A stretch of 64,000 nt of DNA from Bacilli bacterium (GCA_017398945.1 JAFQES010000030.1:28586-92585), one strand, 5' to 3'; counted from the stretch's first letter, positions 11,826 to 50,966 are shown. The notes: a model not told the origin generated them from the sequence alone. Made by a program: numbers and translations.

Positions 11826-12110
11826 TTTAATCACCTTTTTCTTATACTATATTATATAATTTATTAGGAAAAAAATCTACTTTTATAAACAATTTTTAAA
11901 AGTGTAAATTAAGGTGTCTATCATAAGTGTCTAGCGAACAAATAAAGTTTTAGAAATATATTTTGGCTTAAATACTAGGCTAAATGTTTTTTTGGAGAAA
12001 AAAATAAATTGCTTTTCTAAAAATGGATTGTAAAATTTAATTTTTTTTCAAAAAAAACATTGAGTTATTAAATTCTCTTTGATATGATTTGTTTAGTAGA
12101 GGGTAGAGTT

Positions 12111-31192: not shown

Positions 31193-31203
31193 ATTTTTAG
31201 ATA

Positions 31204-31238
31204 AAGCAACTAATAAATTTGCTATTAGTTGCTTTTTT
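31204..31238 (+). terminator. Rho-independent terminator after fnlB
   Basis: aagcaactaat aaatttgct attagttgctt followed by TTTTTTAT. Confidence 0.6.
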
Positions 31239-31345
31239 ATTGATTTTTATTAACAAAAAAGCCAGTTTCTTTATAAAAATAATATTTTTTATAATATTTA
31301 TATGATATAATTATTTTAGAATGTTTTTATAGTTAGGTGGTAATA

Positions 31346-32470: not shown

Positions 32471-32535
32471 TACTATAAATATATATGAAGTTTATATATT
32501 TAATATTTATTTATAGCAATAGGAGTGTATAAGTA

Positions 32536-33507: not shown

Positions 33508-35966
33508 AAATATTATATATTTGCAATTTTGTAGATAAAAATTATTTTAACGATATTTTTAATAAAGCTTTGGAAAAACCAATTCAAAGTATTCAAAAGT
33601 TTAATGAATTATTTGTTGAAGGTTTACGAAAAAATAAAGATGTAGAAAGTATAAATATATTATCTCATGCTCCAGTTAATAGAAAAATATCTAAAAAATG
33701 TTTCTGGAAAGGTAAATCTTTAGAAGATGGAAATGTTAAATATAGTTATATTCCCTTTATAAACATTAAAATATTAAAACAAATCTGTTTGTTTATAATG
33801 AGTATTTTTTATGTATTATTTTGGAATGTAAAATACATCAATAAAAACAGAACTATTGTAGTGGATGGTTTTGTTCCAGTAATTTCTACAGTTGCTGTAA
33901 TAATTGGTAAAATTTTTAATATAAGGATTATATCTCTTTATACTGATATTGTTAAGTTTGATGCAAATGATACGTTTGTTAAAAAAAATTTTGTGCGAAA
34001 TTTTATTAAAAAGGTAATTAATATAGGAGATGTTATTAATTTAAAGTTTACTGATATGTTCATATTATTAACGTTGCAAATGAATGAAATAATTAATAAA
34101 AATAATAAACCTTTTATTGTTATAGAAGGTTTTGTGGATAGTAAGTTTAACCCTCAAAAAAATGTTGAAAAGAAAAAAGCAATTATGTATGCTGGTGGAT
34201 TATATGAAAAATATGGTGTAAAATTATTAATTGATTCATTTATCGAATGGAACAATTCTGAATATGAATTATGGTTATGTGGTGGTAATGGAGATTTAAT
34301 TGACTATATAAATAGTTTAAATTATAAAAATATTGTATATTATGGAGCTTTACCAAATGATAAAATTGTAGAAATGGAGCAAGCTTCTACTTTGTTAGTT
34401 AATCCTAGATTTAGTAATGAGGAATATACTAAATATTCATTTCCTTCAAAAAATATGGAGTATATGACATCTGGGACACCTGTTTTAACAACTAAGCTTC
34501 CGGGAATGAAAAAAGAATACTATGATTATGTTTATTTGATAGAAGAAGAAACTAAAAATGGATTTATTAGTAAATTTAAGGAAATAACAAAAAAAACAAC
34601 AAAAGAATTGCAAGCATTTGGAAAAAAGAGCCAAGCTTTCGTTTTAAAAGAAAAAAATAATATAATTCAAGCAAAAAAAATTATAGATAAAATAAAAAAA
34701 GTTAAAATAAAAAAGAGAACTGCAAAAGATAAATTAGTGTTTTTTTATATAGCTGTTAGTATTATTTTTTTGTTTCTTTCTATGGCAAATGTTTATGGAT
34801 TATATAAAGTATCTTTAAAAACTTATTTTATTTATATTGTTAGCATAATTTTCTTGATTTTGGGGTTAAAAATTAAATTAAAAGAAAAGCAAATTAATAA
34901 GAAAGATAAAAAAAGTATTATAGATGTAACTATTAAAATGTTTGATTCGGAAATTTTTAGAATAATTATATTGTGTTGTATGTTTATAATAATGGGATAC
35001 TTTCTTAAATATTTATTTATTATAAAAGATTTACCGGCTTCGGAAATTAGAATGGCAGCTTTTGATAAATTATATAGTAATGCATATGATGCTGTATTTT
35101 ACTTATATGTTGTTAATAATATAAATGTTTTATTTACGATATTAATTCCATTATTAATTTTTGATAATTCTTTAAAACATAAACATATAAAATTTAATTT
35201 ATGTGTAATGATTATTTCTTTTATTTTGTTTAGTTTAATTGGATTTGGTAGATTAAATTTTTTGAATATAATATTAGCTTTTCTTTTTGTAGGTTTATAT
35301 TTTGTAAAATTTGAAAATATTTTTAAAAAGAAAAATCTATTGTATTTTATAGCTGGTATTTTATTGATTTTTATTGTATCGATGCTATTTATTTATATTA
35401 GAGTTTTTAGTTCTAATCAATCTAATGGTTTATTTAGTTTAATTAATTATCAAACAAAACAAATTTTTGAATATTTTTTAGGCTCTTTTAGAGCATTGGA
35501 TGTATTTATAAGTAATGGTTTTAATGGGATTTCTAGATATTCTTTTGGTCGCGCAACTTTTGCGGGCATTGATGAAATAGTTTTATATCCAATAAAATTC
35601 TTTGGAGGTGAAGTGTTAAGCTTTAATCAAATTGTTTCACCTTTAACTCAAGAGGGAATAGCGGTGGGTTATAATACACCATATTATAATGCCTTTTATA
35701 CATCAATTATGAATTATTATTTAGATTTTGGATTTTTAGGAGTTTGTTTGTTCTCCTATTTACATGGTTTATTTATAAATTATATATTTAAATTATATAA
35801 TAATCGTGAAACAATCATATCTAAAGTTTTAATTGTTTTGGTATCTATTAATTTGTTTATGGGGATTTTAAAATGGAATTATCAAGCCGGTAATATGACA
35901 TTTTTAATAATATTAATGATATTGTTTGAAAATTTTAGTATTCTTAAAGAAAGGAAAATAAAATGA
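33504..35966 (+). CDS. Fusion protein: N-terminal GT4-like glycosyltransferase plus C-terminal multi-TM Wzy-like polymerase/ligase domain
   Basis: The first roughly 400 aa carry a GT4 C-terminal-domain signature (EYMTSGTPVLTTKLPGM). The last roughly 400 aa form about 10 predicted TM helices with an O-antigen-polymerase-like composition. Confidence 0.65.
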   Translation: MKILYICNFVDKNYFNDIFNKALEKPIQSIQKFNELFVEGLRKNKDVESINILSHAPVNRKISKKCFWKGKSLEDGNVKYSYIPFINIKILKQICLFIMSIFYVLFWNVKYINKNRTIVVDGFVPVISTVAVIIGKIFNIRIISLYTDIVKFDANDTFVKKNFVRNFIKKVINIGDVINLKFTDMFILLTLQMNEIINKNNKPFIVIEGFVDSKFNPQKNVEKKKAIMYAGGLYEKYGVKLLIDSFIEWNNSEYELWLCGGNGDLIDYINSLNYKNIVYYGALPNDKIVEMEQASTLLVNPRFSNEEYTKYSFPSKNMEYMTSGTPVLTTKLPGMKKEYYDYVYLIEEETKNGFISKFKEITKKTTKELQAFGKKSQAFVLKEKNNIIQAKKIIDKIKKVKIKKRTAKDKLVFFYIAVSIIFLFLSMANVYGLYKVSLKTYFIYIVSIIFLILGLKIKLKEKQINKKDKKSIIDVTIKMFDSEIFRIIILCCMFIIMGYFLKYLFIIKDLPASEIRMAAFDKLYSNAYDAVFYLYVVNNINVLFTILIPLLIFDNSLKHKHIKFNLCVMIISFILFSLIGFGRLNFLNIILAFLFVGLYFVKFENIFKKKNLLYFIAGILLIFIVSMLFIYIRVFSSNQSNGLFSLINYQTKQIFEYFLGSFRALDVFISNGFNGISRYSFGRATFAGIDEIVLYPIKFFGGEVLSFNQIVSPLTQEGIAVGYNTPYYNAFYTSIMNYYLDFGFLGVCLFSYLHGLFINYIFKLYNNRETIISKVLIVLVSINLFMGILKWNYQAGNMTFLIILMILFENFSILKERKIK

Positions 35967-37234
35967 GAGTTTTATGGATAGTTAATACAATTTTTAATTA
36001 CCCTGCAAAAAAAATGAAATTAAAACCAACCGTTTTTGGAGGTTGGTTAAATTCATTATTTAATAATTTAAAAAATAGAAAAGAGATTGAAAAGTTAGCT
36101 ATTGCTACAGTTTATAATGGTAGGGAATTAAAAAAATTTGAAGATGGTAACGTTGTATATTATTTGTTACCAGTTAATAACATAAATAAATATGATAAGA
36201 AATTAGAAACTATGTGGTATAAGGTAACAAAAGAATTTTTTCCAGATGTAGTTCATATTCACGGTACTGAATATCCTCATGTTTCTGCTTTTTTAAATTG
36301 TAATTTGAATGTTAAAACTTGTACCTCTATTCAAGGATTGGTTTCTATATATGGTGTAAAAGATACATATAATGCAGGGATTAATGCTAAAGATATGTTA
36401 AAAAGCATTACTATTAGGGATATTCTAAAAAAAGATCTATTATTTTTTCAATATAGAAACTTTATAAAAAAGGGGTTCTTTGAAAAAAGTACTTTACAAA
36501 AGACAAATATTATAATTGGAAGAACTTCGTGGGATAAAGCATATGCTTATAAAATTACTAAAGAAAACAAATATGAATTATGTAATGAGAGTTTAAGAGA
36601 AGTTTTTTATACAAATAATTGGGATATAAATAATATCAATAGACATACGATTTTTGTAAGTCAGGCTACTTATCCTATAAAAGGATTTCATAAAGTTATT
36701 GAAATGTTAAATATTATAAAAGACGAATATCCTGATATATTGATTTATGTTGCTGGTCCTAATATCATTAAAAATGATAGTATTAAAGAGAAACTTAAGA
36801 TGAATGGATATAGTAAATATATTAACAAATTAGTAAAAAAATATAAATTACAAAATAATATTAAATTTGTTGGTTTATTAAATGAACAAGATATGTGTAA
36901 TTATTTGTTGAAGTCGCATGTTTTTTTACAAGCATCTTCAATAGAAAATAGTCCAAACTCATTAGGCGAAGCTATGCTTTTAGGTATGCCTGTTGTAGCA
37001 TCGTATGTTGGTGGAACTGCTGATATGTTATTAGATAAACAAGAAGGTTTATTATATCCCTTTGGAGATTGTGCAATGATGGCGAAATATATAAAGGATA
37101 TTTTTAATGACGATAAATATGCATTGAAATTAGGAAAAAATGCTCAAATGCATGCTAGGATAACACATAATATTATAACTAATGTTAATAAAACTATAGA
37201 AATATATAACAAGTTACAAAAGGAGGAAGAATGA
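35963..37234 (+). CDS. GT4 family glycosyltransferase
   Basis: NSPNSLGEAMLLGMPVVASYVGG GT4 motif. Confidence 0.8.
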   Translation: MRVLWIVNTIFNYPAKKMKLKPTVFGGWLNSLFNNLKNRKEIEKLAIATVYNGRELKKFEDGNVVYYLLPVNNINKYDKKLETMWYKVTKEFFPDVVHIHGTEYPHVSAFLNCNLNVKTCTSIQGLVSIYGVKDTYNAGINAKDMLKSITIRDILKKDLLFFQYRNFIKKGFFEKSTLQKTNIIIGRTSWDKAYAYKITKENKYELCNESLREVFYTNNWDINNINRHTIFVSQATYPIKGFHKVIEMLNIIKDEYPDILIYVAGPNIIKNDSIKEKLKMNGYSKYINKLVKKYKLQNNIKFVGLLNEQDMCNYLLKSHVFLQASSIENSPNSLGEAMLLGMPVVASYVGGTADMLLDKQEGLLYPFGDCAMMAKYIKDIFNDDKYALKLGKNAQMHARITHNIITNVNKTIEIYNKLQKEEE

Positions 37235-38397
37235 AGATAACGTTTTTTTCAAATTTTTTAAACCATCATCAATTGCCATTTTGTATGGAAATGGTGGGTA
37301 AATTGGGTTCTAACTTTAAATTTGTTGTAACTGAAAAGATTCCTGAAGAAAGAATTAAATTAGGTTACGATGATATGAATAATGCTTATGATTTTGTTGT
37401 AAGAAGTTATGAAGATGAAAAAGAAGCTTTTCGTTTGGGGTTAGAAAGTGATGTTGTAATAATTGGAAGTGCTCCTTCAAAATATATAAAAAAAAGATTA
37501 AAATATAAAAAGCTAACCTTTAGATATTCAGAAAGAATATTTAAAAGAGGTTTTAATATCAGAACTTGGTTATCTTTAATAAAAAACTATACTTTTAAGG
37601 AAAGAAAAAATGTTTATTTATTATGTTCAAGTGCTTATGCGGCTCATGATTATAATTGTGCTTTTGCGTTTAGAAATAGAACTTTAAAATGGGGTTACTT
37701 TCCTAAAAGTTATGAGTATGATATAGAAAAATTAATTGCAAAAAAAGAAAAAAATAAAGTTGTAGAAATATTATGGGTTGGAAGATTAGTTAACTATAAA
37801 CATCCAGAATATGCAATTGAGGTTGCTAAACGTTTAAAAGATGATAATATAAGATTTAAAATGAATATTATTGGAACAGGAAATTTAGAAAATAAATTAA
37901 GAGAATATATCAAAGATAATGAATTAGAAAATGAAGTATATTTATTGGGTGCTGTTAATAATAAATTAGTAAGATCTTATATGGAAAGTGCAAATATATA
38001 TTTATTTACAAGTGACTATGAAGAGGGATGGGGAGCTGTTTTAAATGAGGCTATGAATAGTGCTTGTGCTGTAGTAGCTTGCCATGCAATTGGAGCAGTG
38101 CCTTTTATGGTTAGACATAATCAAAATGCATTAATATATAAAAATGGTTCAAAGGAAGAATTGTTTTCTTATACTAAAGAGTTAATTACAAATTCAAAAA
38201 AAAGAACTAAAATAGCAAAAAAAGCTTACAATACCATAAATGATGATTGGAATGCATCTGTTGCCTCCAATAGGTTATTAGAAATTATTAATGATTTTAA
38301 ACGATTAAATAAATTTAAAGATGGTCCTTGTTCAATAGCAAAAAATATTAGTCAAAATAAAATGTATGATTGGATTATGAGTAATGAGAATGGTTAA
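37231..38397 (+). CDS. GT4 family glycosyltransferase
   Basis: EEGWGAVLNEAMNSACAVVACHAIG GT4 motif. Confidence 0.8.
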   Translation: MKITFFSNFLNHHQLPFCMEMVGKLGSNFKFVVTEKIPEERIKLGYDDMNNAYDFVVRSYEDEKEAFRLGLESDVVIIGSAPSKYIKKRLKYKKLTFRYSERIFKRGFNIRTWLSLIKNYTFKERKNVYLLCSSAYAAHDYNCAFAFRNRTLKWGYFPKSYEYDIEKLIAKKEKNKVVEILWVGRLVNYKHPEYAIEVAKRLKDDNIRFKMNIIGTGNLENKLREYIKDNELENEVYLLGAVNNKLVRSYMESANIYLFTSDYEEGWGAVLNEAMNSACAVVACHAIGAVPFMVRHNQNALIYKNGSKEELFSYTKELITNSKKRTKIAKKAYNTINDDWNASVASNRLLEIINDFKRLNKFKDGPCSIAKNISQNKMYDWIMSNENG

Positions 38398-39697
38398 AAG
38401 TATAATAGAAAGATTTAAAAATTCAAAAATAATTAAAAACTCAATATGGATGATTTTGGCAACTATAGTACAAATGGTTATATCATTATTTATAAATATT
38501 TTTGTAGCAAGGTATTTAGGAGTTAATAATTATGGAATTTTAAATTATGGATTATCATTTGTAAACTTTTTCTTGGCAATATGCAATTTGGGTTTAAATA
38601 CAATTGTAATAAAGTATTTGATTGATGAAAAAAATAATCATGGCGAAATTTTGGGAACATGTATATTATTGAGATTCTTTGCTGGCTTAATATCTATGTT
38701 ATTAATCTTTTTAATAGTTTTTATTTTAAAAGGAAATGATAAATTAATAATATATACTACTGTCCTTCAATCTATATCGTTAATATTTGATTCTTTTTCG
38801 ACAATAAGTTTATGGTATCAACATAGATTAGAATCAAAATTTATTGCGATTATAACTTTTTTTGCTTATATATGTATGGCTTTGTATAAAGTTTACTTAT
38901 TAATTGCTAAAAAGAATCTGTTATGGTTTGCTGTATCACACTGTGTATCTGGTTTAGTTACAAGTATTCTATTATTTTTATTATATAACTATCATAAAGG
39001 GCCAAAGTTTAAATTCTCTTTAAAAAAAGGCCTTAAAATGCTAAGACAAAGCTATCATTTTATTATTTCTAGTTTGATGGTTGCTGTTTATGCTCAAATA
39101 GATAAAATAATGATAGGAAGTATGATCAATGATATATCTGCAGTAGGTTATTATTCAGTAGCTACTACTATAGTTTCACTATGGTCATTTTTGCCAACTG
39201 CAGTTAATCATTCTTTTCAACCAGTAATTTTAGAAGCCAAAAATAAAAATGAAAATGATTATCAAAATAAAATGAAACAATTATATTCAATAATAATATG
39301 GTTATCTATTGCATATACTATATTTATTTTAATATTTGGTAGACTACTTATTATAATTTTATATGGAAAAGAATATTTAGCTGGATTATCGGCTTTAAAA
39401 ATTTGTATATTTGGTGTAACTTTTTCTTTTATAGGCGTAGTTAGAGAATTTTGGTTAATATGTGAAAATAAACAAAAATATGCAAAATGGTTTGCGCTTA
39501 TTGGAGTTGTTACGAACATAGTGATTAATGCAATTTTAATACCTTATTTTGGTATTAATGGTGCTGCAATTGCGACGGCATTAACACAATTTATGACGGG
39601 CATTATTGCATCATTAATTTTTAAAGATACCAGAGATTCTTTCTATCATGTAATGTGTGGTTTAACATTTAACTTTAAAAGCCAAAAACAACTTTAG
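38384..39697 (+). CDS. wzx: Polysaccharide flippase (Wzx / MOP superfamily)
   Basis: About 12 TM helices and a polysaccharide-biosynthesis-protein architecture. Confidence 0.8.
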   Translation: MRMVKSIIERFKNSKIIKNSIWMILATIVQMVISLFINIFVARYLGVNNYGILNYGLSFVNFFLAICNLGLNTIVIKYLIDEKNNHGEILGTCILLRFFAGLISMLLIFLIVFILKGNDKLIIYTTVLQSISLIFDSFSTISLWYQHRLESKFIAIITFFAYICMALYKVYLLIAKKNLLWFAVSHCVSGLVTSILLFLLYNYHKGPKFKFSLKKGLKMLRQSYHFIISSLMVAVYAQIDKIMIGSMINDISAVGYYSVATTIVSLWSFLPTAVNHSFQPVILEAKNKNENDYQNKMKQLYSIIIWLSIAYTIFILIFGRLLIIILYGKEYLAGLSALKICIFGVTFSFIGVVREFWLICENKQKYAKWFALIGVVTNIVINAILIPYFGINGAAIATALTQFMTGIIASLIFKDTRDSFYHVMCGLTFNFKSQKQL

Positions 39698-39699
39698 TT

Positions 39700-40640
39700 G
39701 TTTTTTTTGGTAAAAATACTTTTTATAATAGATTTAATAATGATTTTATATGGCTTATGATAAAAATGGCAAATTTTATATATTTTTTCTTTGCTTGGAA
39801 ATTTTTCTGTAGTTATATATTTATCATATATTTTAATAATTCCATAATTTTTCTCGCTAGGTAAATGGAGAATATCAATTTGATTGTATTTATAATTAGT
39901 TGATATTAAATAAAAATCTTCAGTCCAAAATCTTTATATATAAGCACCTGCATTTTTTACTGATTTTTTTAAATTATAAGCTGCTATTGATAAAATTAAT
40001 TCATCGCCTTTAGTTGTAACAAATTTGTTTTTTACCATTTTGTTATAAATTTTACATTCTTCGATAAAAATAGTACTATTTTGTTTGTTAGCTGCAAAAA
40101 ATTCCCCTCCAAAGTGGGTAATATAACAACTAATATTTAAAAATTTTTGAGTTTCAGATACGAATGATTTATAATCATTAACTTGTAATCCATGATTTAT
40201 ATCGTAGAGCATAATATTATTCATACATTCTAACCAAATATTATCAAAAGAATTTTGGACAATAACGTCAGCATCCATATATATATAATTATCATAGTTG
40301 TATTTTTTTACTAATTTTTCTAATGCACATAATTTATAGAATGCTAATGCCCATTTAGGGTTATCAGGGAATTTAAAAGAATCAAAATCTTCTTTAAAAA
40401 TTAAAATATTGTTCTTTTTTTATATATTTGTATAATTTTCGCTTAAATTTGTATTAGTAACTAAAGCGACATCACAATTTTTATTATATTTTTTTGCTGA
40501 TATTAAAGCGACGCAAGACGCAAATATTTTTGCTATAAATATCTACTTGATTTTTTTATCTACATTTACGCCGGTATTTAAATTTTCTAAAAAAGCAAAT
40601 GGAACAAATATAATATTTTTATTTTTTTTCATTATTTTAC
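39700..40640 (-). pseudogene. Frameshifted glycosyltransferase-like gene, broken into at least 3 frames
   Basis: N-terminal fragment MKKNKNIIFVPFAFLENLNTGVNVDKKIK* (40639 downward), a 114-aa middle piece with a DADVIV (DxD-like) motif (39934..40278), and a C-terminal piece continuing in another frame to about 39700. Confidence 0.5.
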
Positions 40641-40729
40641 CTCACTTGTAGTAATTATAAAAATAAATTTATAGTAGTCAATAGCTTTTAGATGAGATAT
40701 AATGGGTATATAGTAAGGAGTGGAAAAAT

Positions 40730-41761
40730 ATGAAAAAGAAAATATTATTTGTATTAGTATTATTATTACTTTGTTGTGGGTGTGGTAATGGTAATGAAAA
40801 TACTAATCTAAAAAAGCAAACAAATAAACAAGAAGAAGTAAAAAATAAAGAAGAAGTTAAAACTAAAAAAGTTACTATTGTTGATTTAGATAGTAATGAA
40901 AGGCCAATTGCAGTTATGATAAACACTCATAAAGAAGCAAGACCACAAGTTGGTTTATCTGATGCGATCATTGTCTATGAACTTATGGTAGAAGGTGGAA
41001 TTACCAGAATGATGGCTTTATACAACCGAGCTTTTGATGAAGAAAAGATCGGGTCTATTAGAAGTTCAAGACATAATTACTTGGATTATGTGTTAGAAAA
41101 TGATGCTATTTATATTCACTGGGGTGGGTCTGATGTAGCTTATGATCATTTGAAAAAACTTGGTATTGATCGTATTGATGGAATGGTTTATGGTAATAAA
41201 TACTTTACTACTGATTCTGGTTTGGATAGATCAATAGAACATACAAGATTTTCATCAAGTGATCTAATTAAGAAGGCTATTAAAGATAAAAAATTTAGAA
41301 CTACAACAGATAAAGGGTATTTACTTAACTATACAGCGGAAGAAGTAGATTTATCTAAAAAGGAAGATGCTACAGTTGCTAATAATGTTACAATTAAATA
41401 TTCTAGTTATCAAACTGTTTCTTATAAATATAATGCTGAAGAAAAAGTTTATTATAGAAATATGAGTGGTGAAAAGCATATTGATCTAGTTACTGGTGAA
41501 CAATATCATTTTAAAAATATAATTGCTTATGATGTTCAATATAATAGTTATGAAGGTACTAAACTAAGAGATTTACAAAATATTGGTTCTGGTACAGGAG
41601 TATATATCACTAATGGCTATAGCATACCTATTAAATGGACTAAAGATAGTAGAGAAGGACAAACTAAATATACATATATGGATGGAACAGAAATAGATGT
41701 ATCTGATGGTAATACGTTTATTCAAATTTATCCAAAAGATGGTAGTTTAAAAGTTAGTTAA
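40730..41761 (+). CDS. Lipoprotein of the YerB/DUF3048 type
   Basis: Lipobox LLLLCCGCG. RPIAVMINTHKEARPQVGLSDAIIVYELMVEGGITRMMALY resembles the DUF3048 N-domain. Confidence 0.6.
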   Translation: MKKKILFVLVLLLLCCGCGNGNENTNLKKQTNKQEEVKNKEEVKTKKVTIVDLDSNERPIAVMINTHKEARPQVGLSDAIIVYELMVEGGITRMMALYNRAFDEEKIGSIRSSRHNYLDYVLENDAIYIHWGGSDVAYDHLKKLGIDRIDGMVYGNKYFTTDSGLDRSIEHTRFSSSDLIKKAIKDKKFRTTTDKGYLLNYTAEEVDLSKKEDATVANNVTIKYSSYQTVSYKYNAEEKVYYRNMSGEKHIDLVTGEQYHFKNIIAYDVQYNSYEGTKLRDLQNIGSGTGVYITNGYSIPIKWTKDSREGQTKYTYMDGTEIDVSDGNTFIQIYPKDGSLKVS

Positions 41762-41766
41762 TCTAA

Positions 41767-41801
41767 AAAGTGAAGAAATGAAGTTTTTCTTCACTTTTTT
41801 T
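41767..41801 (+). terminator. Rho-independent terminator
   Basis: aaagtgaagaaa tgaag tttcttcacttt followed by T6. Confidence 0.7.
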
Positions 41802-41847
41802 ATATTTTATGGTATTATAATTTTCCGATTAAAGGGGTTTTGTTTAT

Positions 41848-42819
41848 ATGGAAAAAAATAATACTATAAATAAACTAAAAGGTGTATTAGAAAGTTCAAC
41901 AATGACTACTTATTTAAGAAGTCTTTCATCTGATGCAGAAAGATTAAATTGGCTTCAAAAAGCTTTATATTTTTTAATTTCTACTAGAGATTATGATGAA
42001 GTATTTTTATATTTATTAAATAGTAATGATTTGACTTTTCCAGTGGGGTATATGAATAACAAGGAGATTTTAGAAAGAGATATTCAAACAATATTTAAAA
42101 GGAATTATTTAAGAGATGGATTTTTATATCATGGTACTTCTAATGTACATAACAATAGTATTTTAGAACAAGGTTTAATTCCGTTATCTTTTAGATATGG
42201 CCAAGAATTGTTAGATGATGTAATCAAAATAAATTTGTTATGTAAACAAATTTCATTAAATACTTTAAAATATACTCAAGGAAAAGTTAGGCTGAGTGAG
42301 AATATGCCATTAGATTTTCTAAATGATAGAATAAATAAAGTGTTTTTAACTGCTGATATTTCACAAGCTTTTCACTATTGTTCTCTTAATAATAATTGGT
42401 TTAGGGATTTTATTGAAAATTTAATATTATTTATTGGTGGCGAAGCTAGTGGACTTTATTATGAAGAAAAAAACACCTTATTAAATCAAGTAATAACTAC
42501 TTTAAATCATTCTAAAGCGATAATCAGTGCTAATGAAAAAAAAGTATTTATTGAAAAATATTATAACAAGAATGAGGTGATAGCAAAAGCAGTTACAAAT
42601 TCTTTAGTAATTGTAAAAAATGATATTAATTTAAACGAATCTTTTGTTGATGTATTAGTTAATTTTAATGATAAAACTAGAGGAATTAATTATGTTTTAA
42701 ATCAAATTAATTATCAAGATATTTATACATCGAAAGTGGCTCCTCAAGATTTAGCAATTTTAAGTTTTAATAAAGATCAATCATTATCGTTGACAATTGG
42801 AAAAAAAGGGATGTTTTAA
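41848..42819 (+). CDS. ADP-ribosyltransferase-fold protein, H-Y-E class (PARP / Tpt1-KptA-like)
   Basis: FLYHGTSNVHNNSILEQGLIP parallels PARP [21 protein letters not shown] and Tpt1 LYHGT...SIL..GL. KVFLTADISQAFHYC parallels the PARP Y-x10-Y-C segment GIYFADMVSKSANYC. A possible catalytic acid lies in GLYYEEKN. Confidence 0.5.
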   Translation: MEKNNTINKLKGVLESSTMTTYLRSLSSDAERLNWLQKALYFLISTRDYDEVFLYLLNSNDLTFPVGYMNNKEILERDIQTIFKRNYLRDGFLYHGTSNVHNNSILEQGLIPLSFRYGQELLDDVIKINLLCKQISLNTLKYTQGKVRLSENMPLDFLNDRINKVFLTADISQAFHYCSLNNNWFRDFIENLILFIGGEASGLYYEEKNTLLNQVITTLNHSKAIISANEKKVFIEKYYNKNEVIAKAVTNSLVIVKNDINLNESFVDVLVNFNDKTRGINYVLNQINYQDIYTSKVAPQDLAILSFNKDQSLSLTIGKKGMF

Positions 42820-43043
42820 GTGGCAAAGAAAAAATTGTAGATACAAATTGTACAGAAGAAGAGTTTTTTATGAATTATTATCGTCTAACTGATTGCTTAA
42901 GAACTTTTGAGTTTGAAGCCACTTTAAATAATTGATTAATGTTATTAAACAATAATCTTAAAGATAAGTTAGATGATATTAAAACTGAGATAATTAAAGA
43001 AATAGATGCAAGAAAATAATTAAGTTAAAATAGGAGGATTTTT

Positions 43044-44840
43044 ATGGATTATATTAAGTTATTAAAAGAGATGTTAGAATTTAAAATAGATATTGATAAA
43101 ATTATGAAAAATTATGCTAATTATTTTTCGTTTTTATTAATCGATGAAAAAAATCAGCAAGAATTAGAGCAAAAAATTGCTTTATATTTAGTTCAAAATG
43201 AAATCTTTAATGAAGTAAAAATACATAAGACTTTTTTTCAATTATACTGTATGTATGCTAAAAATAAATTAGAAAAAGAAAAGAAAACATTAGAAGATTT
43301 ATTATTAGAAAATCCTGATTTAGAATATAACGAATATTTTAATCGTTTAGCCAAAAATTTAAATATTGAGATTACGATAAAAAAAACATGTGAAAATAAT
43401 GAATTGCCTTTCACTAAAACTTATATGGATTCTAATTCGACGGATACTATTACATTATTAAGAAATTGTACTAGTATTCAAATAAACTATGTAAAAAGTC
43501 ATCTTTTAACTGATGAATTAAATATTCTTATAAAAAAATTTGGAAAGCAATTAGATAGCCAAAATGAAATATCCTCCAAGGAAGAAACTATTTTAAAAAC
43601 ACAAATAATACCTAAAATAGATAAAATGATTAAACGCTATGCAGGGTATTATTATTATGATCAAATTTTTGCGGATCAAAAAAATCCATATAAAATGTTT
43701 GGGGCTTTTTACAGTTTAGATAATCATTATAAAAGATTGCTATTAGATTGCTATGGAAAAGAGTTAGAACTACCTATTGATGGTGTAAGTAAAGAAAATG
43801 AGCAAGAATTAAAAAAATTGGTTATTCCATATTTAAGAAATTATAATACTAAAGTGACTTATTACAGAAGGTTTGCTTTGTATCAAGAACTTATTAATTC
43901 GAATAAAGGTTATATTATTTCTATGTTACCTCAAGGATATATTGAAGTGTTAAAGTTGGCGGTGGATAATACTGATAAGATTTTTAGCACTTGTTCTGCG
44001 GATTTTGATATTAAAACATTAACAAGAGGGGTAAAGGCTTTGTTAGAATTATTATTAACTTCAGAAGAATTTTCTTTATTGGATTTACACTTGGGATTTT
44101 CTAGTAATCATACTTATACTTTTTCGGAAATAAGCAAGTTGTGTAATTTATCTGAATCCAAAATAGAAAGTATGTATGATGAAATAATAGTCAAATTGAG
44201 ATTATCACCACATTTAATAAGGGTTTTTAATATGTTGAATAAAAATAGAAATAATACTTTAAATTTTTCTGAACAGGAAGAACAATGTGTTAATAATCAT
44301 TTAGCTAAGACTAATTTTTATGGTTTTTTTACAAAGGATGAAATGAAATTATTACAAGATGCTTTCTTTAAGTTAACATTAGAAGAAATAGAATTTGTAA
44401 ATAAAATATTTAAAGGGGGATTATCCGAAAGTATTAGTTTGAAGACATTATCAACTTCTGAACAACATACTTTAGAATTAATTATTAATAAAACAAAGTC
44501 AAATATTAGTTGCTTTTTAGAGGATGAATGTGAACATAAAATCTTATATAATAATATTTTTAAAATTTGTTCTTTTATTTATTGTGAACCTTTTTATGAA
44601 GATTTGGTTTGTGAATTGTCAAGGGAGCAAATTCAAATATTAAATTTATTTATGGAATTTGATCAAATAAATGAGACAAGTTTAAAGCTAGTTGCTAAAA
44701 AATCAAATATGTCTTATTCACAAATTTGTGTTACTTTAAGAACAATTTTAGAAAGTATGAATCAAGTTTTTGAAAGAGTAAGTAAGAAAAATATTATTGT
44801 CCGTACTTTATTAGAAAAAAATCGTTTTAATAATTTATAA
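43044..44840 (+). CDS. Hypothetical protein with at least 3 tandem sigma-70 region-4-like HTH repeats
   Basis: Repeats RLLLDCYGKELELPIDGVSKENEQELKK. LTSEEFSLLDLHLGF...TFSEISKLCNLSESKIESMYDEIIVKLR. LSREQIQILNLFMEFDQINETSLKLVAKKSNMSYSQICVTLRTILESM. Confidence 0.5.
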   Translation: MDYIKLLKEMLEFKIDIDKIMKNYANYFSFLLIDEKNQQELEQKIALYLVQNEIFNEVKIHKTFFQLYCMYAKNKLEKEKKTLEDLLLENPDLEYNEYFNRLAKNLNIEITIKKTCENNELPFTKTYMDSNSTDTITLLRNCTSIQINYVKSHLLTDELNILIKKFGKQLDSQNEISSKEETILKTQIIPKIDKMIKRYAGYYYYDQIFADQKNPYKMFGAFYSLDNHYKRLLLDCYGKELELPIDGVSKENEQELKKLVIPYLRNYNTKVTYYRRFALYQELINSNKGYIISMLPQGYIEVLKLAVDNTDKIFSTCSADFDIKTLTRGVKALLELLLTSEEFSLLDLHLGFSSNHTYTFSEISKLCNLSESKIESMYDEIIVKLRLSPHLIRVFNMLNKNRNNTLNFSEQEEQCVNNHLAKTNFYGFFTKDEMKLLQDAFFKLTLEEIEFVNKIFKGGLSESISLKTLSTSEQHTLELIINKTKSNISCFLEDECEHKILYNNIFKICSFIYCEPFYEDLVCELSREQIQILNLFMEFDQINETSLKLVAKKSNMSYSQICVTLRTILESMNQVFERVSKKNIIVRTLLEKNRFNNL

Positions 44841-45197
44841 ACATGATATAACATTTATATTTAGGTGGGTGTTGTATGAACAAAATAGTATTAAAAAAAT
44901 TAAAAAAATTTAGTAAAGAGGTAATAGATTTAGACTTAATAAATAGTTTATTTAAAAGTGAAATAAACATATCTGAAGAGGATATAAAAAAACGAAAGTA
45001 AAAATGAAAAAGCTAAGCAAAATAGCTATCAATATTTATTTGTAACATTTAATATAACTGATGATAAATCAAAGGAAGTTTTAAAAGATAGAATAAAATT
45101 ACTTCCAAAACAAAACAGGGATTTATTAAAAAAGATTTATGGTGTTGAATTAGATCAGGCCCAAAATCTAAAAGATTTATCACAAAAAGAAATAAAT

Positions 45198-46061
45198 ATG
45201 TTTTATAGTTCAATTATTCCTAAACTAAAACAAATTTTCTATACATATTCAAAGTTCTATTATATGTTTAATATTACTGATGAAACTGAAAAAGTAGAAT
45301 TACTAGCAACGCTTGATAGTAAGTTATCAAAAGATTATTTAGTTATTTTGAAAAAAATATATGGTGAAGATTTAAATAGTGATTTTAACAGTGATTTTAT
45401 TTCTGAGGAAGAATATTGTTTATTTAAAGTAGCTATTTTAAAAAGCATAACTAAAATGCTTAATTATAAAAATGTAAAACCTGATAATAAATATCAATAT
45501 TTCTTTAAAATATTTGGGCGAGATGAAAAAACCAAAAGAGAAGTTAAAGCTATTTTAAATTATTTTGATAAAAAGAATTTAAATATTTTGACTAATTTAT
45601 ATGGAAGTAGTCTAGAAGACGAGTTAGATATTTCCAAGATTAAAAGTGATGAATATTATATTTTTGTGAGAACTATTGTTCCAAAAATATTTAAAATGTT
45701 GAATTTATATCATGAAAATGCGACAGCGTTAGTTGTAAATAAAGAAACTGAAAAAGCAGTAGATCAATCTGAAAAAATATCAGCGTTTATGTTAGATATA
45801 TACAAAAATCCCTTGTTTTTACAGTTAGCTAAATTGTTGCCTGAAAAAGATTGTATTATTTGGGTATTATATTGGGGATTAGATGTCAAAAAACTTACTG
45901 TTGAGGAAATTTCTAATTTAAAAACAATTAACATGATTGAAAGCGAAATTATAAATTCATTGAAAAAATCTGCTAAATTAATTAATTCTACAATAACTCA
46001 TTTAAATGAAATAATTAATTTTGAATCAATAATAAAATTAGTTAGAAAAGACCCAAGTTAA
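45198..46061 (+). CDS. Hypothetical protein of tandem sigma-70 region-4-like HTH repeats (paralog of 43044..44840); N-terminal repeat may lie upstream without a start codon
   Basis: Repeats LSKDYLVILKKIYGEDL..., LNILTNLYGSSLEDELD..., LPEKDCIIWVLYWGLDVKKLTVEEISNLKTINMIESEIINSLKK. An in-frame upstream segment (45057-45197) encodes LPKQNRDLLKKIYGVELD but has no ATG/GTG/TTG. Confidence 0.5.
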   Translation: MFYSSIIPKLKQIFYTYSKFYYMFNITDETEKVELLATLDSKLSKDYLVILKKIYGEDLNSDFNSDFISEEEYCLFKVAILKSITKMLNYKNVKPDNKYQYFFKIFGRDEKTKREVKAILNYFDKKNLNILTNLYGSSLEDELDISKIKSDEYYIFVRTIVPKIFKMLNLYHENATALVVNKETEKAVDQSEKISAFMLDIYKNPLFLQLAKLLPEKDCIIWVLYWGLDVKKLTVEEISNLKTINMIESEIINSLKKSAKLINSTITHLNEIINFESIIKLVRKDPS

Positions 46062-46086
46062 AAAGCGTTTTAAAAAACGCTTTTTA
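46061..46086. terminator. Bidirectional rho-independent terminator
   Basis: aaaagcgtttt aaa aaacgcttttt. Confidence 0.65.
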
Positions 46087-46698
46087 ATATTGTTTTATTT
46101 TCCATACATCATTTGTTTTCTCAAATATGATGAAGTTGTTATTTAAAGATGTTAAATAATAGTTTTTTTCATATGCTAGGGGAATTAATTCTTCTTGGCT
46201 ATCTAATGAGAAAATGGAGTTAGAAAAAACATTTCTTGGGCCATAATTTTCATTAGTATCTTTAATTATGCAATTTACAAATTCATTATTTAAAGTAGAG
46301 GTGTTTAAAAGGGTATTAATTATTTCAGGAGAAAAATAAATAGTTAATAAATCTTTTTGGATTTTTTGGCAAGATAGCTTTAAATCATTTAGTTTAACAT
46401 CTACATATGGACTTAATAAATTTTCTCCTTTAATAAGTTCATTTGCTTCATTGTAAGTGGTTAATATTTTACTAAATTCCGTTTTCTTTTCTAATTCTTT
46501 TGCTTCAATAGCTTTTTTTAAATCTTCATCACAATTTAATTTTAATATATGATTTTCTTGATAATTAAACCAATTATGAATTGGTCCAAAATATTTGTCG
46601 TATGCAATATATATTGATAAGCTTAAAAGTAATAGACAAAGAATAATTATAATAATATTGTATCTTAATTTGGTTAATTTCTTAGCTTTTTTGTTCAT
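46084..46698 (-). CDS. Hypothetical membrane-anchored protein (N-terminal TM)
   Basis: IIIIILCLLLLSLSIYIAY TM segment. Confidence 0.5.
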   Translation of the reverse strand: MNKKAKKLTKLRYNIIIIILCLLLLSLSIYIAYDKYFGPIHNWFNYQENHILKLNCDEDLKKAIEAKELEKKTEFSKILTTYNEANELIKGENLLSPYVDVKLNDLKLSCQKIQKDLLTIYFSPEIINTLLNTSTLNNEFVNCIIKDTNENYGPRNVFSNSIFSLDSQEELIPLAYEKNYYLTSLNNNFIIFEKTNDVWKIKQY

Positions 46699-46833
46699 TT
46701 ATTATCACCATTATAAATTATAACATTATTAATGGAAAAACAATTAATATTTTTACATTAATTTACAAAAAAGTGCAAATTGAATTTACTAAAATTTTTG
46801 TTTAATATATAATTAAAATAGTGGGTGATTGTG

Positions 46834-47280
46834 ATGACAGATAATTTATTACAACAATATTTAGAAGATTATAAAATAATATTAACCAATGTTTTAAACA
46901 CAATAAATCATCGTGTTTTTTCTGCTACAAAAAGATTTAATGAAGAAGAATTAGTTTTAATGGAACAAGATAGTTATGTGGTAAATGGAAAGGTATTAGA
47001 TGATTTAAATCGAATAAACTATGAAACGCAAAAAATTATTACATATTTAAATGATAACATTGAGCTTGATATTGAATCAGTTCGATTTTGTAAAAGTTGT
47101 TTAGAAGAAATAAAAAAAATGATAAATGACAATAATTTAAATGGCGCCAAACAAATATTAACTATAGTACAGGTTGTTTTAGGGTTTACAACCAGTTTTT
47201 ATAGTGTTTTTTTAGATATAGCAAAAGTGTTAAATAATATGAAACTTGCTAGGAAGAAAAAAGGTGATGTTAATGAGTAA
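46834..47280 (+). CDS. Hypothetical protein
   Basis: ATG 46834 after AGTGGGTGA. Its stop overlaps the next gene's start. Confidence 0.45.
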   Translation: MTDNLLQQYLEDYKIILTNVLNTINHRVFSATKRFNEEELVLMEQDSYVVNGKVLDDLNRINYETQKIITYLNDNIELDIESVRFCKSCLEEIKKMINDNNLNGAKQILTIVQVVLGFTTSFYSVFLDIAKVLNNMKLARKKKGDVNE

Positions 47281-49198
47281 TTTAAAAAACTTTTTTATAT
47301 TTTTAAATCAATTAGAGAAAACATATACGACTCAATTAAAAGACATAGATAATAAAATAGATAAATTAAAAAGTGATATAGTTAATTTTGAAAATAATTT
47401 ATCTAATCCTTCAAAGTTTATAAGAAATATGAGAGCGCTTATTTATGATTATGATATTAAAAATTTTGATCAGGATTATATTGAACATGAAATAAAAAAT
47501 ACAGTTGGTTTTAACTATGAAACACGAGCATTTAAACCTTTGAATATGGAATTATCTTTAGTATTAAAAGATTTTAAAAGACAAAGAAAAAGTATAAAGG
47601 GCTCACTAGCTGATATTTCTAAACTAAAAGTTTGTTTTAATGAAAATGCATTTTTAGTGAGTCAATTAGATTCTAATTGTTTCAAAATAGTTCAAGAAGT
47701 TTTAGGATTAATGAATATAAAAGATGTAGCTAAAACATTACAATATTTAACGATATATAATACAAGATTAATGCAAAAATCTTTGGAAGATGTTATAGAA
47801 GAACAAAAAACATCATCTTTACAAAAAGTTGTTGGAGCTGATAAAACAGTCGAAGAAAAAGTAATTATACCTAAAATTGGAAAAAAAGTTATTGATGTTT
47901 CAGGTAATAAGACGATTACTGAAGCTCAAAATATAATTTCTGCTAATCAAGAATTTGTAATGGTAATAAATGAAGAAGAAAAAGATTGCTATGAATTAAT
48001 AGTAGAAGAGGAAGAATATATATTTAATTTGGCTGTTAATAATATTTCTAATTTAAAAGTATCTATAATGGTATTAACTAATTTAGTAAATAAAGCTATT
48101 TCAATTGGTTTAACAAATGAGTTAGAAAATTTAATAGCCGATGTTATAGATTCATATAAGTCGCTAAAAGAAGTTGTAAAAAAAGAGGAAGAGGAAAGCC
48201 TTAAACAAAAAGCATTAGAAGATAAGTTTAAGCAAGAAAAGAAAAAATTGGAAGACTTAGAATCAGATAAAATTGAAAAAATATTAATTGAAGAACAAGA
48301 TTTTTTAGAATCTTTAAATGATTACGAAAAATCCTATAATGAAAATATTGCTAATTTTAGTAGTAATGATTGGAACTATATTGAATCTTTAGATGCTTTA
48401 AATGCTGCTTATCATATTACAACTGAATCTAATTCTGTTGTATATGGTCAATGTTTACAATTAATTAAAATAAGTGATAATTTAACTGAAGATAATTATT
48501 TAAAATATTATAGTTTAAAACAAATATTAGATTTAAAATCTAGTTTAGATGAGATTGAAGATAGTCATAATTTAACCATAGTTATTTCTGATTTAAAACA
48601 AGTAGTTCGCAATTATGAAGAAAATTTAAGGGTAGAAGTCCCAAAAATTGAAGAACAAAAAGATAGTCATAATTTAGTAGTTTATTTACAAGATAATAAT
48701 CAAACTTTGATAGAAGATTTTATTTTTAATGATAAAATTACTTCAAAAAATATTAATTTAAGTCATATAAATGGGATATCTTATTTAATTAAAATATTAA
48801 AAGATAGTGGTATAGATGCTATTCAAAAAAATTCTACTAAAGCTAAGGGCGATAATTTAACTGATGGTGAATTAAGAATTATTCATTCTGGAAGTGTTTA
48901 TTTAGCATTTAAATATTTTAGTAAAATTTATAATGGAGATGTTGTACCAATTATAACAATTATATCTGCAGGAATTAAATTAGGTGATGATAAGAGATTT
49001 TTTGATTATATAAATGAATCAACTACTTTAACAACATTAGATAACTTTGAAAGTACTGTTTTACCTACAATATTTGATGGTAGAAGGTTAGAAGATATAA
49101 AAAGGGAATTTCTATCGTTAGAACAACAAATGTTAAGTAATTTAACAAGCTATGTAAATAATGGCCATAGAAAAAATGGTAATTTAAATATAGGATAG
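47273..49198 (+). CDS. Hypothetical large coiled-coil-rich protein
   Basis: ATG 47273 overlaps the previous stop (ATGAGTAA). Glu/Lys-rich predicted coiled-coil stretches. Confidence 0.5.
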   Translation: MSNLKNFFIFLNQLEKTYTTQLKDIDNKIDKLKSDIVNFENNLSNPSKFIRNMRALIYDYDIKNFDQDYIEHEIKNTVGFNYETRAFKPLNMELSLVLKDFKRQRKSIKGSLADISKLKVCFNENAFLVSQLDSNCFKIVQEVLGLMNIKDVAKTLQYLTIYNTRLMQKSLEDVIEEQKTSSLQKVVGADKTVEEKVIIPKIGKKVIDVSGNKTITEAQNIISANQEFVMVINEEEKDCYELIVEEEEYIFNLAVNNISNLKVSIMVLTNLVNKAISIGLTNELENLIADVIDSYKSLKEVVKKEEEESLKQKALEDKFKQEKKKLEDLESDKIEKILIEEQDFLESLNDYEKSYNENIANFSSNDWNYIESLDALNAAYHITTESNSVVYGQCLQLIKISDNLTEDNYLKYYSLKQILDLKSSLDEIEDSHNLTIVISDLKQVVRNYEENLRVEVPKIEEQKDSHNLVVYLQDNNQTLIEDFIFNDKITSKNINLSHINGISYLIKILKDSGIDAIQKNSTKAKGDNLTDGELRIIHSGSVYLAFKYFSKIYNGDVVPIITIISAGIKLGDDKRFFDYINESTTLTTLDNFESTVLPTIFDGRRLEDIKREFLSLEQQMLSNLTSYVNNGHRKNGNLNIG

Positions 49199-49208
49199 AG
49201 GTGAAAAA

Positions 49209-50966
49209 ATGCAAGAATTAATTAGTAAACTAATTAATATATTTAAGATTATCTTAAATGAAAACTTTGATGAAAATAAATATAATCGTTCTTATAGTAT
49301 TCAGGATATTAAAGATTATATTCGATTGTTAGAAGATGATTTATATGCAATAAAAGATATCGATAAATATTTGTTAAATGTTTCTATAAGTGAAGATCAA
49401 AAGCGTGTTTTGGAGGCTTTTAAAACGACAATAGCTTTTAATGAGACTAATAATATTTTTTCTTTAGATGAACTAGATAAATATCGAAAGACAAATATTT
49501 ATAGTTACATTAAATCAGCATTAGTTCGACAAATTATTTTGTTAAGTGATGCCAAAAAAGCCAAAGAAGATTGTTTAAAGAAAAAACAAATATGTTTAAA
49601 AATATTAAATTTTCTTCAAAAACACGATTGTTCAAAACTTATTAACGAACAACAATTACATACTTTTTATAACTTTATAAATAGCATTAATTTACCTCAA
49701 GAAAAGCTTATTGAAATTAATTTATTATTATTTCAATTTAATTTAATGGCAAATCCTAATTTAGAGTTATCAAACAAATATGAATTGGTTGAGAGTATTA
49801 ATAAATTTAATATGACAAAAGATCAAGCTGTTGAAATTTTTGCTCAATATGGTTATGATTTTAACTTGGTTGATAGTAAAATTCAAGAAGAATTGTTAGT
49901 TTTAGGAAATGTCGATAGTATTAATGAAATGTTTAGTTATTTTGAAGATATAAAAAAAGAACATAAAATCAATTTTAATGAGAAAGATAATAAAATGGTT
50001 ACTTTATTATATAAAAGTAAGCCAGATATCTTCGATAATATTATAGAGTTAGCTGAAGGTAATATTAGTTTAGCAAAAATCTTAGAAACTATGCCAAGTG
50101 TTTTTATACATAAGGGAACATCTATAACTCAAAATAGCGAAAAGAAAAAGAAGGCTACAGTATCAGAACAAAATGACAAAACTCCTTCCGGAAGTTATGA
50201 GGATTTTATTTTAAATATTGAATTATTTAAATATTTAGGCTATGACATAAAAGAGGTATTTGTTAAAAATGCGGATATTTTGACTATTCCTCACGAAAGA
50301 ATTAAAAGGAATGTTGATCAATTAAAATTATTAGGAATTGATTTAAAAACTGATAAAAAGAAAGATTTTAAATTATCAGCCCTAAAATCCACATCATTGC
50401 TATTAACTATGGATAAGTTTATAGAATTGGGAGAATATGATTATTTAATGAATAATCTTTCGCGTTTTTATTTAGAGCCAAATTCAATAGTTTTTTATAG
50501 ATTATTTCATGTCAAAAAACATAATAATAGCTTTCCTAATCAACAAATAGAAATTTATTATGATAAAAATAAAACGAGATACAAAGGATATATATCTAAT
50601 TCAACCAATAAAGAATTGGGTATTAATGAAGAAAATAAAATAAGCGGTTTTGCAACCAGTCTTCCGATTATAAACCGTCCAGTTATTATAAATGAAGTTG
50701 TAGAGAAAAAGTTAGATGATTTAATTGTTGATCGATATGATAAAAAGGTAGTGGAGATAGATTCACGAATATTAATGCATCCAGTTGTTCAAAGAATAGA
50801 TGATAATTTTAAAACATCTAATGAATTAATTTATAACATTAATGGCATTTTAATTTCTCGACATAAGTTTTTACGCAATTTCATGGCAATTGTTGATGTA
50901 CGAAAAGATTTGGATTTAAGTGAAATTGTTGAGTTTTGTTTAATAAAAGATTCTTTATTAACATAA
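49209..50966 (+). CDS. Hypothetical helical-repeat protein (repeats of the form [FY]LxxLG[IY]D...)
   Basis: GAGGTGA RBS. Repeated about 30-aa units, e.g. VEIFAQYGYDFNLVDSKIQEELLVLG and LFKYLGYDIKEVFVKNADILTIPHERIKRNVDQLKLLGIDL, are reminiscent of mTERF-type repeats. Confidence 0.5.
   Translation: MQELISKLINIFKIILNENFDENKYNRSYSIQDIKDYIRLLEDDLYAIKDIDKYLLNVSISEDQKRVLEAFKTTIAFNETNNIFSLDELDKYRKTNIYSYIKSALVRQIILLSDAKKAKEDCLKKKQICLKILNFLQKHDCSKLINEQQLHTFYNFINSINLPQEKLIEINLLLFQFNLMANPNLELSNKYELVESINKFNMTKDQAVEIFAQYGYDFNLVDSKIQEELLVLGNVDSINEMFSYFEDIKKEHKINFNEKDNKMVTLLYKSKPDIFDNIIELAEGNISLAKILETMPSVFIHKGTSITQNSEKKKKATVSEQNDKTPSGSYEDFILNIELFKYLGYDIKEVFVKNADILTIPHERIKRNVDQLKLLGIDLKTDKKKDFKLSALKSTSLLLTMDKFIELGEYDYLMNNLSRFYLEPNSIVFYRLFHVKKHNNSFPNQQIEIYYDKNKTRYKGYISNSTNKELGINEENKISGFATSLPIINRPVIINEVVEKKLDDLIVDRYDKKVVEIDSRILMHPVVQRIDDNFKTSNELIYNINGILISRHKFLRNFMAIVDVRKDLDLSEIVEFCLIKDSLLT

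Follow-up and report, generated by a model that had tools for sequence, protein, structure and literature searches.

We describe a gene and its product from a stretch of 64,000 nucleotides of a Bacilli bacterium (GCA_017398945.1, JAFQES010000030.1:28586-92585; this whole stretch is called the window, and positions are counted from its first letter). The gene encodes a protein of 323 amino acids (aa) whose family, to judge from sequence comparison and a predicted structure, very likely has the fold of the ADP-ribosyltransferases (ARTs), although this falls short of proof. The homology of its His-x-Thr segment to Tpt1/KptA and DarT is solid, and ARTs are the only coherent signal from sequence and structure. 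The family is new and divergent within the ART superfamily, with a new architecture and an uncertain activity. As the best explanation, which we put forward tentatively and at somewhat less than even confidence, the window protein would be a cytoplasmic, two-part member of this family that probably binds NAD+, may transfer ADP-ribose and works with the sigma-like proteins of its operon.

The open reading frame (ORF) begins with ATG and is a genuine gene, located exactly where a preliminary description, made from the sequence alone, had placed it.

41848-42819, plus strand: ORF of the 323-aa protein of the putative ART-fold family (ORF, homologues, model, NCBI entry MBQ4584460.1)

A plausible ribosome-binding site, AAAGGGG, lies about 10 nucleotides 5' of the start codon. 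The exact protein is deposited in NCBI as MBQ4584460.1, a 'hypothetical protein' from a Bacilli metagenome-assembled genome (MAG); the first homology search missed this entry because an 80-aa fragment (P0010) stands for its cluster in the protein collection reduced to 90% identity. Scanned directly against Pfam, NCBIfam, PDB sequences, PADLOC and PHROGs, the window protein gave no match, and the sole NCBIfam line, Mph(C) with 20.7 bits against a cutoff of 550, was dismissed as noise. Four close homologues with 48-65% identity to the window protein were returned by a word-indexed search, and an exhaustive HMMER search with the close-homologue alignment found 47 proteins among 1.84 billion representatives, nearly all of them about 320 aa long and aligned end to end; in total the homologues number 4 close and about 45 distant ones. 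The family profile and the usable structural model were built on a 38-sequence alignment. All recovered family loci have a GC content of 22-29%. When GTDB genomes and metagenome and viral contigs were scanned with patterns, the yield was only one already known MAG locus and one new short contig, and phage, plasmid and viral-contig collections held no relatives. The family is unnamed, rare and lineage-restricted, and as far as seen occurs only in very AT-rich gut Bacilli.

The first segment, FLYHGTSNVHNNSILEQGLIP (residues 92-112), had been likened to Tpt1/KptA, and the profile comparisons bear this out. Against PDB sequences the 38-sequence profile matched KptA of Thermococcus (E = 5.9e-4) and DarT1 of E. 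coli (E = 3.4e-3) over about 30 residues around His-x-Thr, and hhalign against an alignment of four Tpt1 sequences (three from PDB, and KptA as encoded in the E. coli genome) gave probabilities of 92.6-95.4% with P = 4.6e-7 to 2e-8 for residues 84-117. The H-x-[S/T] motif at the end of strand 1 is present as H95-G-T97, opposite HGT in the alignment to Tpt1 and opposite H-x-T in that to DarT. The only residues invariant in the 38 sequences are H95, T97 and G109, with G91, I105, L113 and P154 nearly so. When the 38 members were scanned individually with Pfam, ART families (DarT, PTS_2-RNA, Tox-ART-HYD1 and PARP) were the only recurring theme among weak matches, with best E-values of 0.0051 for DarT (2 members), 0.033 for PTS_2-RNA/Tpt1 (2/38) and 0.048 for PARP (2/38). 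A direct hit to one of the PARP, Tpt1 or DarT profiles, by which the preliminary description had hoped to confirm the fold, was not obtained for the window protein; other members reached E = 0.005-0.05 only.

An AlphaFold model from a 5-sequence alignment was not usable (pLDDT 43.7), whereas the AlphaFold2 model from the 38-sequence alignment has a pLDDT of 92.4 and a pTM of 0.89. In this model six helices in residues 1-90 precede six strands (92-98, 165-168, 251-257, 292-294, 302-307 and 313-317), with a helix after each of the first three strands and long helical insertions between strands. A review of the superfamily describes the ART core as a split sheet of six strands, most of them followed by a helix, in which the HX[S/T] motif contacts the ribose (PMC8120803); the six strands of the model follow the element order of that core. 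The predicted parts of the protein are as follows.

41848-42117, plus strand: residues 1-90, predicted all-helical N-terminal domain of six helices, family-specific (model; no Pfam or PDB match)
42118-42198, plus strand: residues 91-117, strand 1 and helix with H95-G-T97 and G109 (GFLYHGTS...SIL..GL), H95 codon at 42130-42132 (homologous to Tpt1/KptA and DarT)
42199-42327, plus strand: residues 118-160, predicted helical insertion 1 between strand 1/helix 1 and strand 2 (model helices 113-117 and 119-142)
42328-42393, plus strand: residues 161-182, predicted strand 2 (V165-F166-L167-T168) and helix to Y177, candidate nicotinamide-stacking aromatic pair, F166 codon at 42343-42345 (model, alignment)
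42394-42597, plus strand: residues 183-250, predicted helical insertion 2; position 183 is Asn here and Glu in 32/33 other members (model, alignment)
42598-42816, plus strand: residues 251-323, predicted strands 3-6 with a two-helix insertion, D291 codon at 42718-42720 (model, alignment)

The three helical insertions within the putative ART core amount to about 140 residues, and the first of them accounts for the 71 residues between H95 and F166, a spacing earlier estimated at about 70 aa. The N-terminal part had been called unrelated to known regulatory domains, and its roughly 90 residues indeed match nothing in Pfam or PDB; K11, L14, E15, S16, F42, L43, T46, D48 and Y68 are conserved there, without an Arg-His pair. 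As read from the sequence, the N-terminus is hydrophilic with no signal-peptide-like stretch, in line with the earlier remark that a secretion signal is missing. Foldseek against PDB placed ARTs in all of the ranks 1-11 and in about 27 of the top 50 (PltA, pertussis S1, the A chains of typhoid and cholera toxin, KptA/Tpt1 and DarT), and a search of BFVD returned a similar sprinkling of ARTs.

The second segment, NKVFLTADISQAFHYCS (residues 163-179), is predicted to form a strand (165-168) and a helix (171-179) and had been set in parallel with PARP1 GIYFADMVSKSANYC. ARTs carry an aromatic residue (Tyr) or S-T-S on strand 2; residue 166 on the predicted strand is Tyr, Phe or Trp in 38/38 sequences (Phe in the window protein) and is followed by Leu and then Ser or Thr; Y177 sits 11 residues past F166, a spacing equal to that of Y896 and Y907 in PARP1. 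By position, F166 and Y177 may be the equivalents of these two tyrosines. The parallel holds in position and in the conserved aromatic residue but found no statistical support, as hhalign against the PARP1 catalytic domain aligned motif 1 only (P = 0.005, 20 residues) and did not recover the second segment. The third ART motif is a catalytic Glu (or Asp/Gln) where a C-terminal strand begins; as a candidate for it, most family members carry [DE]-I-E just before or at strand 4. In the window protein D291 precedes strand 292-294, and position 291 is Asp or Glu in 37/38 sequences. The second Glu of [DE]-I-E is absent from the window protein's group, a subclade with about 50% identity overall, where Tyr or Ser takes its place (Tyr in the window protein). 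A sub-threshold HMMER alignment, suggestive only, puts this second Glu of the main-family 'DIEY' on the 'DMEY' of DarT.

The proposed membership in the H-Y-E class is not established: Phe stands where Tyr is expected, no catalytic Glu was placed, and the subclade has neither E183 nor the second [DE]-I-E Glu, the two Glu residues that the wider family conserves. Judged from sequence and model, the window protein would be at best an H-F-D variant and at worst a pseudoenzyme that keeps the ligand pocket alone. Asp in place of Glu has precedents, as Arr is an active ART with H-Y-D and AcrIF11 has H-F/H-D (PMC8120803). Within the subclade H95, G96, T97, Y177 and D301 are invariant; such constancy at only about half overall identity argues that ligand binding is still under selection.

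The genes next to the ART-like gene suggest a partner. At the loci of all four close homologues, a protein of 371-402 aa with sigma-70 regions 2 and 4 starts 1-4 bp after the stop codon of the ART-like gene. Longer related loci carry further genes for a 595/596-aa protein with a region-4-like helix-turn-helix and for a 940-949-aa protein with full sigma-70 regions 1.2-4 and a long C-terminal extension; a 1862-aa repeat protein occurs, among related loci, only in L001 (goat-rectum MAG RGIG3081). The gene upstream of the ART-like gene varies, being a DUF3048 gene in some loci and a glycosyltransferase gene in others. The window holds a decayed version of this arrangement, with the following features around the ART-like gene.

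41765-41799, plus strand: intrinsic-terminator-like hairpin at the end of the upstream DUF3048 lipoprotein gene (14-pair stem, then a T run)
41790-41818, plus strand: promoter-like site TTCACT-17-TATTAT with TG upstream, 30 nucleotides before the start codon (consensus match only)
42798-42937, plus strand: remnant of a sigma-70-like gene, about 42 codons and then a stop (50% identity to the N-terminus of the L001 381-aa sigma-like protein)
43044-44840, plus strand: protein of 598 aa, with an internal helix-turn-helix like that of sigma-70 region 4 (orthologous to the 595/596-aa proteins)
45006-46061, plus strand: 287-aa ORF (ATG at 45198) and in-frame upstream stretch lacking a start codon (resembles repeats of the L001 1862-aa protein)
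46057-46088, plus strand: terminator-like hairpin closing the predicted three-gene unit of the ART-like, 598-aa and 287-aa genes (hairpin)

From the hairpin at 41765-41799 it follows that a new transcription unit begins at the ART-like gene, as the preliminary description had proposed in letting it open a cluster, and together with the next plus-strand terminator at 46057-46088 it predicts a unit of the ART-like, 598-aa (43044-44840) and 287-aa (45198-46061) genes. Promoter-like sites in this AT-rich DNA are not enriched against shuffles (96 found, 91.9 expected). The cluster had been called an orphan one and turns out to be a partly decayed set of sigma-70-like genes. About 1 kb of the adjacent sigma-70-like gene has been deleted in the window, leaving 42798-42937. 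The 598-aa protein is 37% identical to its 595-aa orthologue and homologous to the C-terminal extension of the 940-949-aa sigma-70 proteins. The 287-aa ORF is probably a 5'-truncated remnant of the giant repeat protein; the approximately 64 in-frame codons upstream of its ATG contain no start codon and still resemble internal repeats of the L001 1862-aa protein. The 940-949-aa proteins themselves (L001 13965-16814 and L004 14066-16888) have sigma-70 regions 1.2, 2, 3 and 4 at residues of about 210-456 and a C-terminal extension of about 490 residues; a sigma factor with such an extension, accompanied by paralogous stand-alone 'extension' proteins of 595-598 aa, is an unusual architecture.

In the mechanism that we tentatively favour, H95 and T97 in the His-x-Thr motif would hold NAD+ or ADP-ribose, with contacts to the ribose hydroxyls, and F166 and Y177 would stack on the nicotinamide. 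The likeliest acidic residue for catalysis would be D291. ADP-ribose may then be passed to an intracellular acceptor, by analogy with the H-Y-D/H-F-D mono-ARTs Arr and AcrIF11. The transcription machinery would be the most likely partner or target in the subclade, because the ART-like gene is the first in an operon with sigma-70-like proteins.

Several observations weigh against this interpretation. Sequence homology to ARTs spans only about 34 residues, and the C-terminal half gave no significant hhalign alignment with Tpt1 (P = 0.09) or PARP1 (P = 0.5). The predicted structure resembles an ART in the order of its six strands and has ARTs in the first places of its Foldseek ranking, but all Foldseek matches are weak, the best with E = 0.13 and probability 0.72, and TM-scores range from 0.22 to 0.38. 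The neutral isoelectric point (pI) of 6.9 offers nothing that points to nucleic-acid binding. The subclade lacks residues kept elsewhere in the family, namely N101, Y122, N139, R161 (partly), E183, P257 and the second Glu of [DE]-I-E, each of these seven positions being conserved in 20-32 of the 33 other members, and the close homologue P0003 has Asn at position 291; because of these losses the ancestral chemistry may have disappeared from the subclade. The link to sigma-like genes is seen in the window's subclade only, where synteny is conserved anyway, and the adjacent sigma-like gene has decayed in the window.

The brevity of the significant similarity, the low Foldseek scores and the missing Pfam match of the window protein would also fit a convergent or chance short motif in a protein of a different, unrecognised fold and function. 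We regard this as improbable, since the His-x-Thr segment is the only invariant segment of the family, independent ART families (Tpt1, DarT and PARP) are matched by sequence, the structure search, which does not rely on the motif alone, also puts ARTs first, and the number and order of the strands fit the ART core.

A pseudoenzyme is a more serious alternative, which we consider quite possible, if doubtful: the fold and a His-x-Thr pocket for NAD+ or ADP-ribose would have been kept and the transferase activity lost in the subclade, leaving a protein that senses a ligand or serves the sigma-70-like proteins as a purely structural partner, such as an assembly factor or an anti-sigma-like one. 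It would account for the seven lost positions, of which E183 (32/33) and the second [DE]-I-E Glu are two, and for the Asn of P0003. Within the subclade conservation is highest in the N-terminal helical domain (64% mean pairwise identity compared with 44-58%) and not in the ART core, and the tight operon with sigma-like genes is confined to this subclade. On the other side, H95, G96, T97, the aromatic residue 166 and Y177 are still invariant or conservatively replaced, which fits retained NAD+ handling, and active ARTs that lack the canonical Glu exist in Arr (H-Y-D) and AcrIF11 (H-F/H-D) (PMC8120803).

Returning to the ART-fold family as such, it is most like the His-x-[ST] ARTs on the Tpt1/DarT/PARP/diphtheria-toxin side of the superfamily, yet it should not be filed under PARP, Tpt1 or DarT, since for each of the three the window protein stays below the profile threshold and lacks one or more of the defining traits. 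Tpt1/KptA (PF01885) is the best sequence match: 'GFLYHGT...SIL..GL...RY' aligns with the Tpt1 'FLYHGT...SILkeGLkpmkRqY', and in both the ribose-binding His-x-Thr motif is followed by a helix and then by a V-x-L-S/T strand. In Tpt1 the N-terminal winged-helix lobe carries the Arg-His and an Arg of the R-H-R-R catalytic tetrad. The family lacks this lobe and the tetrad, has the helical insertions in its ART core, shows an aromatic residue (Y/F/W) instead of His after the Val of the second strand, and remains below the Pfam threshold. An RNA 2'-phosphotransferase of the Tpt1/KptA type is therefore scarcely credible and was rejected. That Tpt1's NAD+ lobe gives the best match, that the main-family 'R-F-x-S-V-Y-L-S' loosely, though not significantly, resembles the Tpt1 'R-x-Y-V-H-L-S', and that three main-family loci adjoin aminoacyl-tRNA synthetase genes are outweighed by an all-helical N-terminal domain that does not align with the winged-helix lobe, by the absence of a conserved Arg-His pair, by the unmatched PTS_2-RNA profile and by an R161 that is not conserved in the subclade.

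DarT (PF14487/DUF4433), the single-stranded DNA ART of the DarTG toxin-antitoxin system, is the second-best match through its 'LxHxT..N..SIL..GL' segment, and the main-family 'D-I-E-Y' aligns below threshold with the 'D-M-E-Y' around the DarT catalytic Glu. It differs in that this aligned Glu is absent from the window's subclade, no locus encodes a DarG macrodomain partner, the pI of the window protein is neutral and the Pfam threshold is not reached; membership in the DarT type was rejected on the missing Pfam match of the window protein and the missing DarG macrodomain at about 12 loci. With the H-Y-E ARTs of the PARP/diphtheria-toxin type (PF00644) the family shares the strand and helix of His-Gly-Ser/Thr (hhalign P = 0.005) and, as sequence and model suggest, the strand-2 aromatic residue and the Tyr 11 residues later (F166/Y177 and Y896/Y907). 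Past motif 1 nothing aligns significantly, the E988 position has no assignable Glu, the PARP regulatory helical domain is missing from the family, and the His-to-aromatic spacing is 34 residues in PARP1 compared with 71 in the window protein.

Arr and AcrIF11, minimal H-Y-D/H-F-D ARTs, are alike in having Asp for Glu and Phe or His for Tyr (PMC8120803), and the pattern of the window protein would be H95, F166, D291; unlike the window protein they are small single-domain enzymes with known targets, and they have no detectable sequence relationship to the family. The A subunits of pertussis-like toxins (PltA, pertussis S1 and cholera toxin A; R-S-E clade) occupy Foldseek ranks 1-9 and 11 with probabilities up to 0.72 and are ART cores with helical insertions, but they have Arg instead of His in motif 1, carry S-T-S and E-x-E motifs and are secreted AB5 toxins, with 7-11% identity and E of at least 0.13.

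The preliminary description had placed the protein in a conflict or defence context, for which the surroundings speak poorly. The DNA of the window is chromosomal and comes from an anaerobe with a cell wall and 25% GC; genes for NrdD, MurC, SufS and an LCP transferase, together with a large cluster for cell-wall polysaccharide, flank the ART-like gene. Its protein is free-standing, as described earlier: no macrodomain, PARG, ARH, NADAR or DarG gene was found at any of about 12 loci, the window included. PADLOC and PHROGs returned nothing for the protein and its six neighbours. The setting of the window gene is not one of defence. Outside the subclade, family members lie among housekeeping genes with no adjoining sigma genes. 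The main family also forms tandem arrays of paralogues, with five copies in L009 (2262-7272), three in L014 (4023-7062) and two in L016 (1102-3113); two of the L009 copies are each split into N- and C-terminal halves. These arrays adjoin genes for aminoacyl-tRNA synthetases, ProRS in L009 and a class Ib tRNA synthetase in L014 and L016; a T-box or other RNA element tying the arrays to these genes was considered and dropped, as Rfam gave no matches.

The one feature that hints at conflict is the rate of change. In the comparison of the window with L001, protein identity is 98-99.5% for the upstream polysaccharide genes (94% in DNA over the cluster), compared with 70% for the flippase, 89% for DUF3048, 48% for the ART-like protein and 41% for the 598-aa protein. 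Between the window and L004 the flanking genes are 79-91% identical, the ART-like protein 51% and the 598-aa protein 33%. The ART/sigma module evolves much faster than its flanks and is losing genes in the window, which fits diversifying selection, recombinational replacement or relaxed constraint. The mosaic divergence from L001 over window positions 30924-44840 suggests that the polysaccharide cluster was recently exchanged, that the ART/sigma module turns over very fast, or both.

A DarT-like or toxin-like ART of a toxin-antitoxin or anti-phage system, modifying DNA or RNA, would agree with the weak DarT profile matches, with the tandem arrays and their split copies, and with 48-51% identity for this gene compared with 79-99% for its neighbours in the same genome pairs. 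We judge it very unlikely, given that about 12 loci contain no macrodomain, NADAR or ARH partner, that PADLOC, PHROGs and the phage, plasmid and viral-contig collections yielded nothing, that the pI is neutral and that the neighbours are housekeeping or cell-envelope genes.

Further along the window, three plus-strand ORFs of 151, 650 and 585 aa at 46825-50966, with no Pfam, NCBIfam, PADLOC or PHROG match, form an insertion relative to the otherwise syntenic L004; it lies between a gene for a 203/204-aa membrane protein and PAP2 and SH3_3 genes, and these surrounding genes are 79-91% identical to their L004 counterparts. Two NrdD-like ORFs occur near each other in the window. That at 14724-17078 encodes a genuine anaerobic ribonucleotide reductase (score 1145 bits) whose C-terminal tail (residues 711-762) is glutaredoxin-like, and that at 12084-14003 (639 aa), with a weak two-piece match to NrdD models, may be a degenerate or divergent paralogue.

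A more far-reaching interpretation, to which we give little credence as a whole, is that the ART-like and sigma-70-like proteins constitute a regulatory module in which an NAD+-dependent ART, or a pseudo-ART sensing NAD+ or ADP-ribose, would covalently modify or sequester dedicated sigma factors. NAD+ status would in this way govern transcription, for instance that of the fast-changing locus for cell-wall polysaccharide next door. The wider family, with its tandem arrays and with H, Y, E183 and [DE]-I-E kept, would then be a new active ART clade acting inside the cell. A literature search for ART-sigma factor modules returned nothing relevant. Activity appears doubtful in the window's own subclade, and gene context is what suggests the sigma link.

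New divergent ART families turn up regularly by such methods. If the fold assignment holds, an unnamed family with a six-helix N-terminal domain and a core split by about 140 residues, present only in uncultured, very AT-rich gut Bacilli, would be added to the ART superfamily. Few bacterial ARTs are free-standing without being either a secreted toxin or the partner of a reversing hydrolase, and this family would be one of them. Its shared operon with sigma-70-like proteins would point to ADP-ribosylation as an endogenous means of regulating transcription, for which, to our knowledge, bacteria offer little documentation apart from Alt/Mod of phage T4. The members with the full set of acidic residues and the subclade that has lost them would offer a natural comparison for the change from ART to pseudoenzyme.

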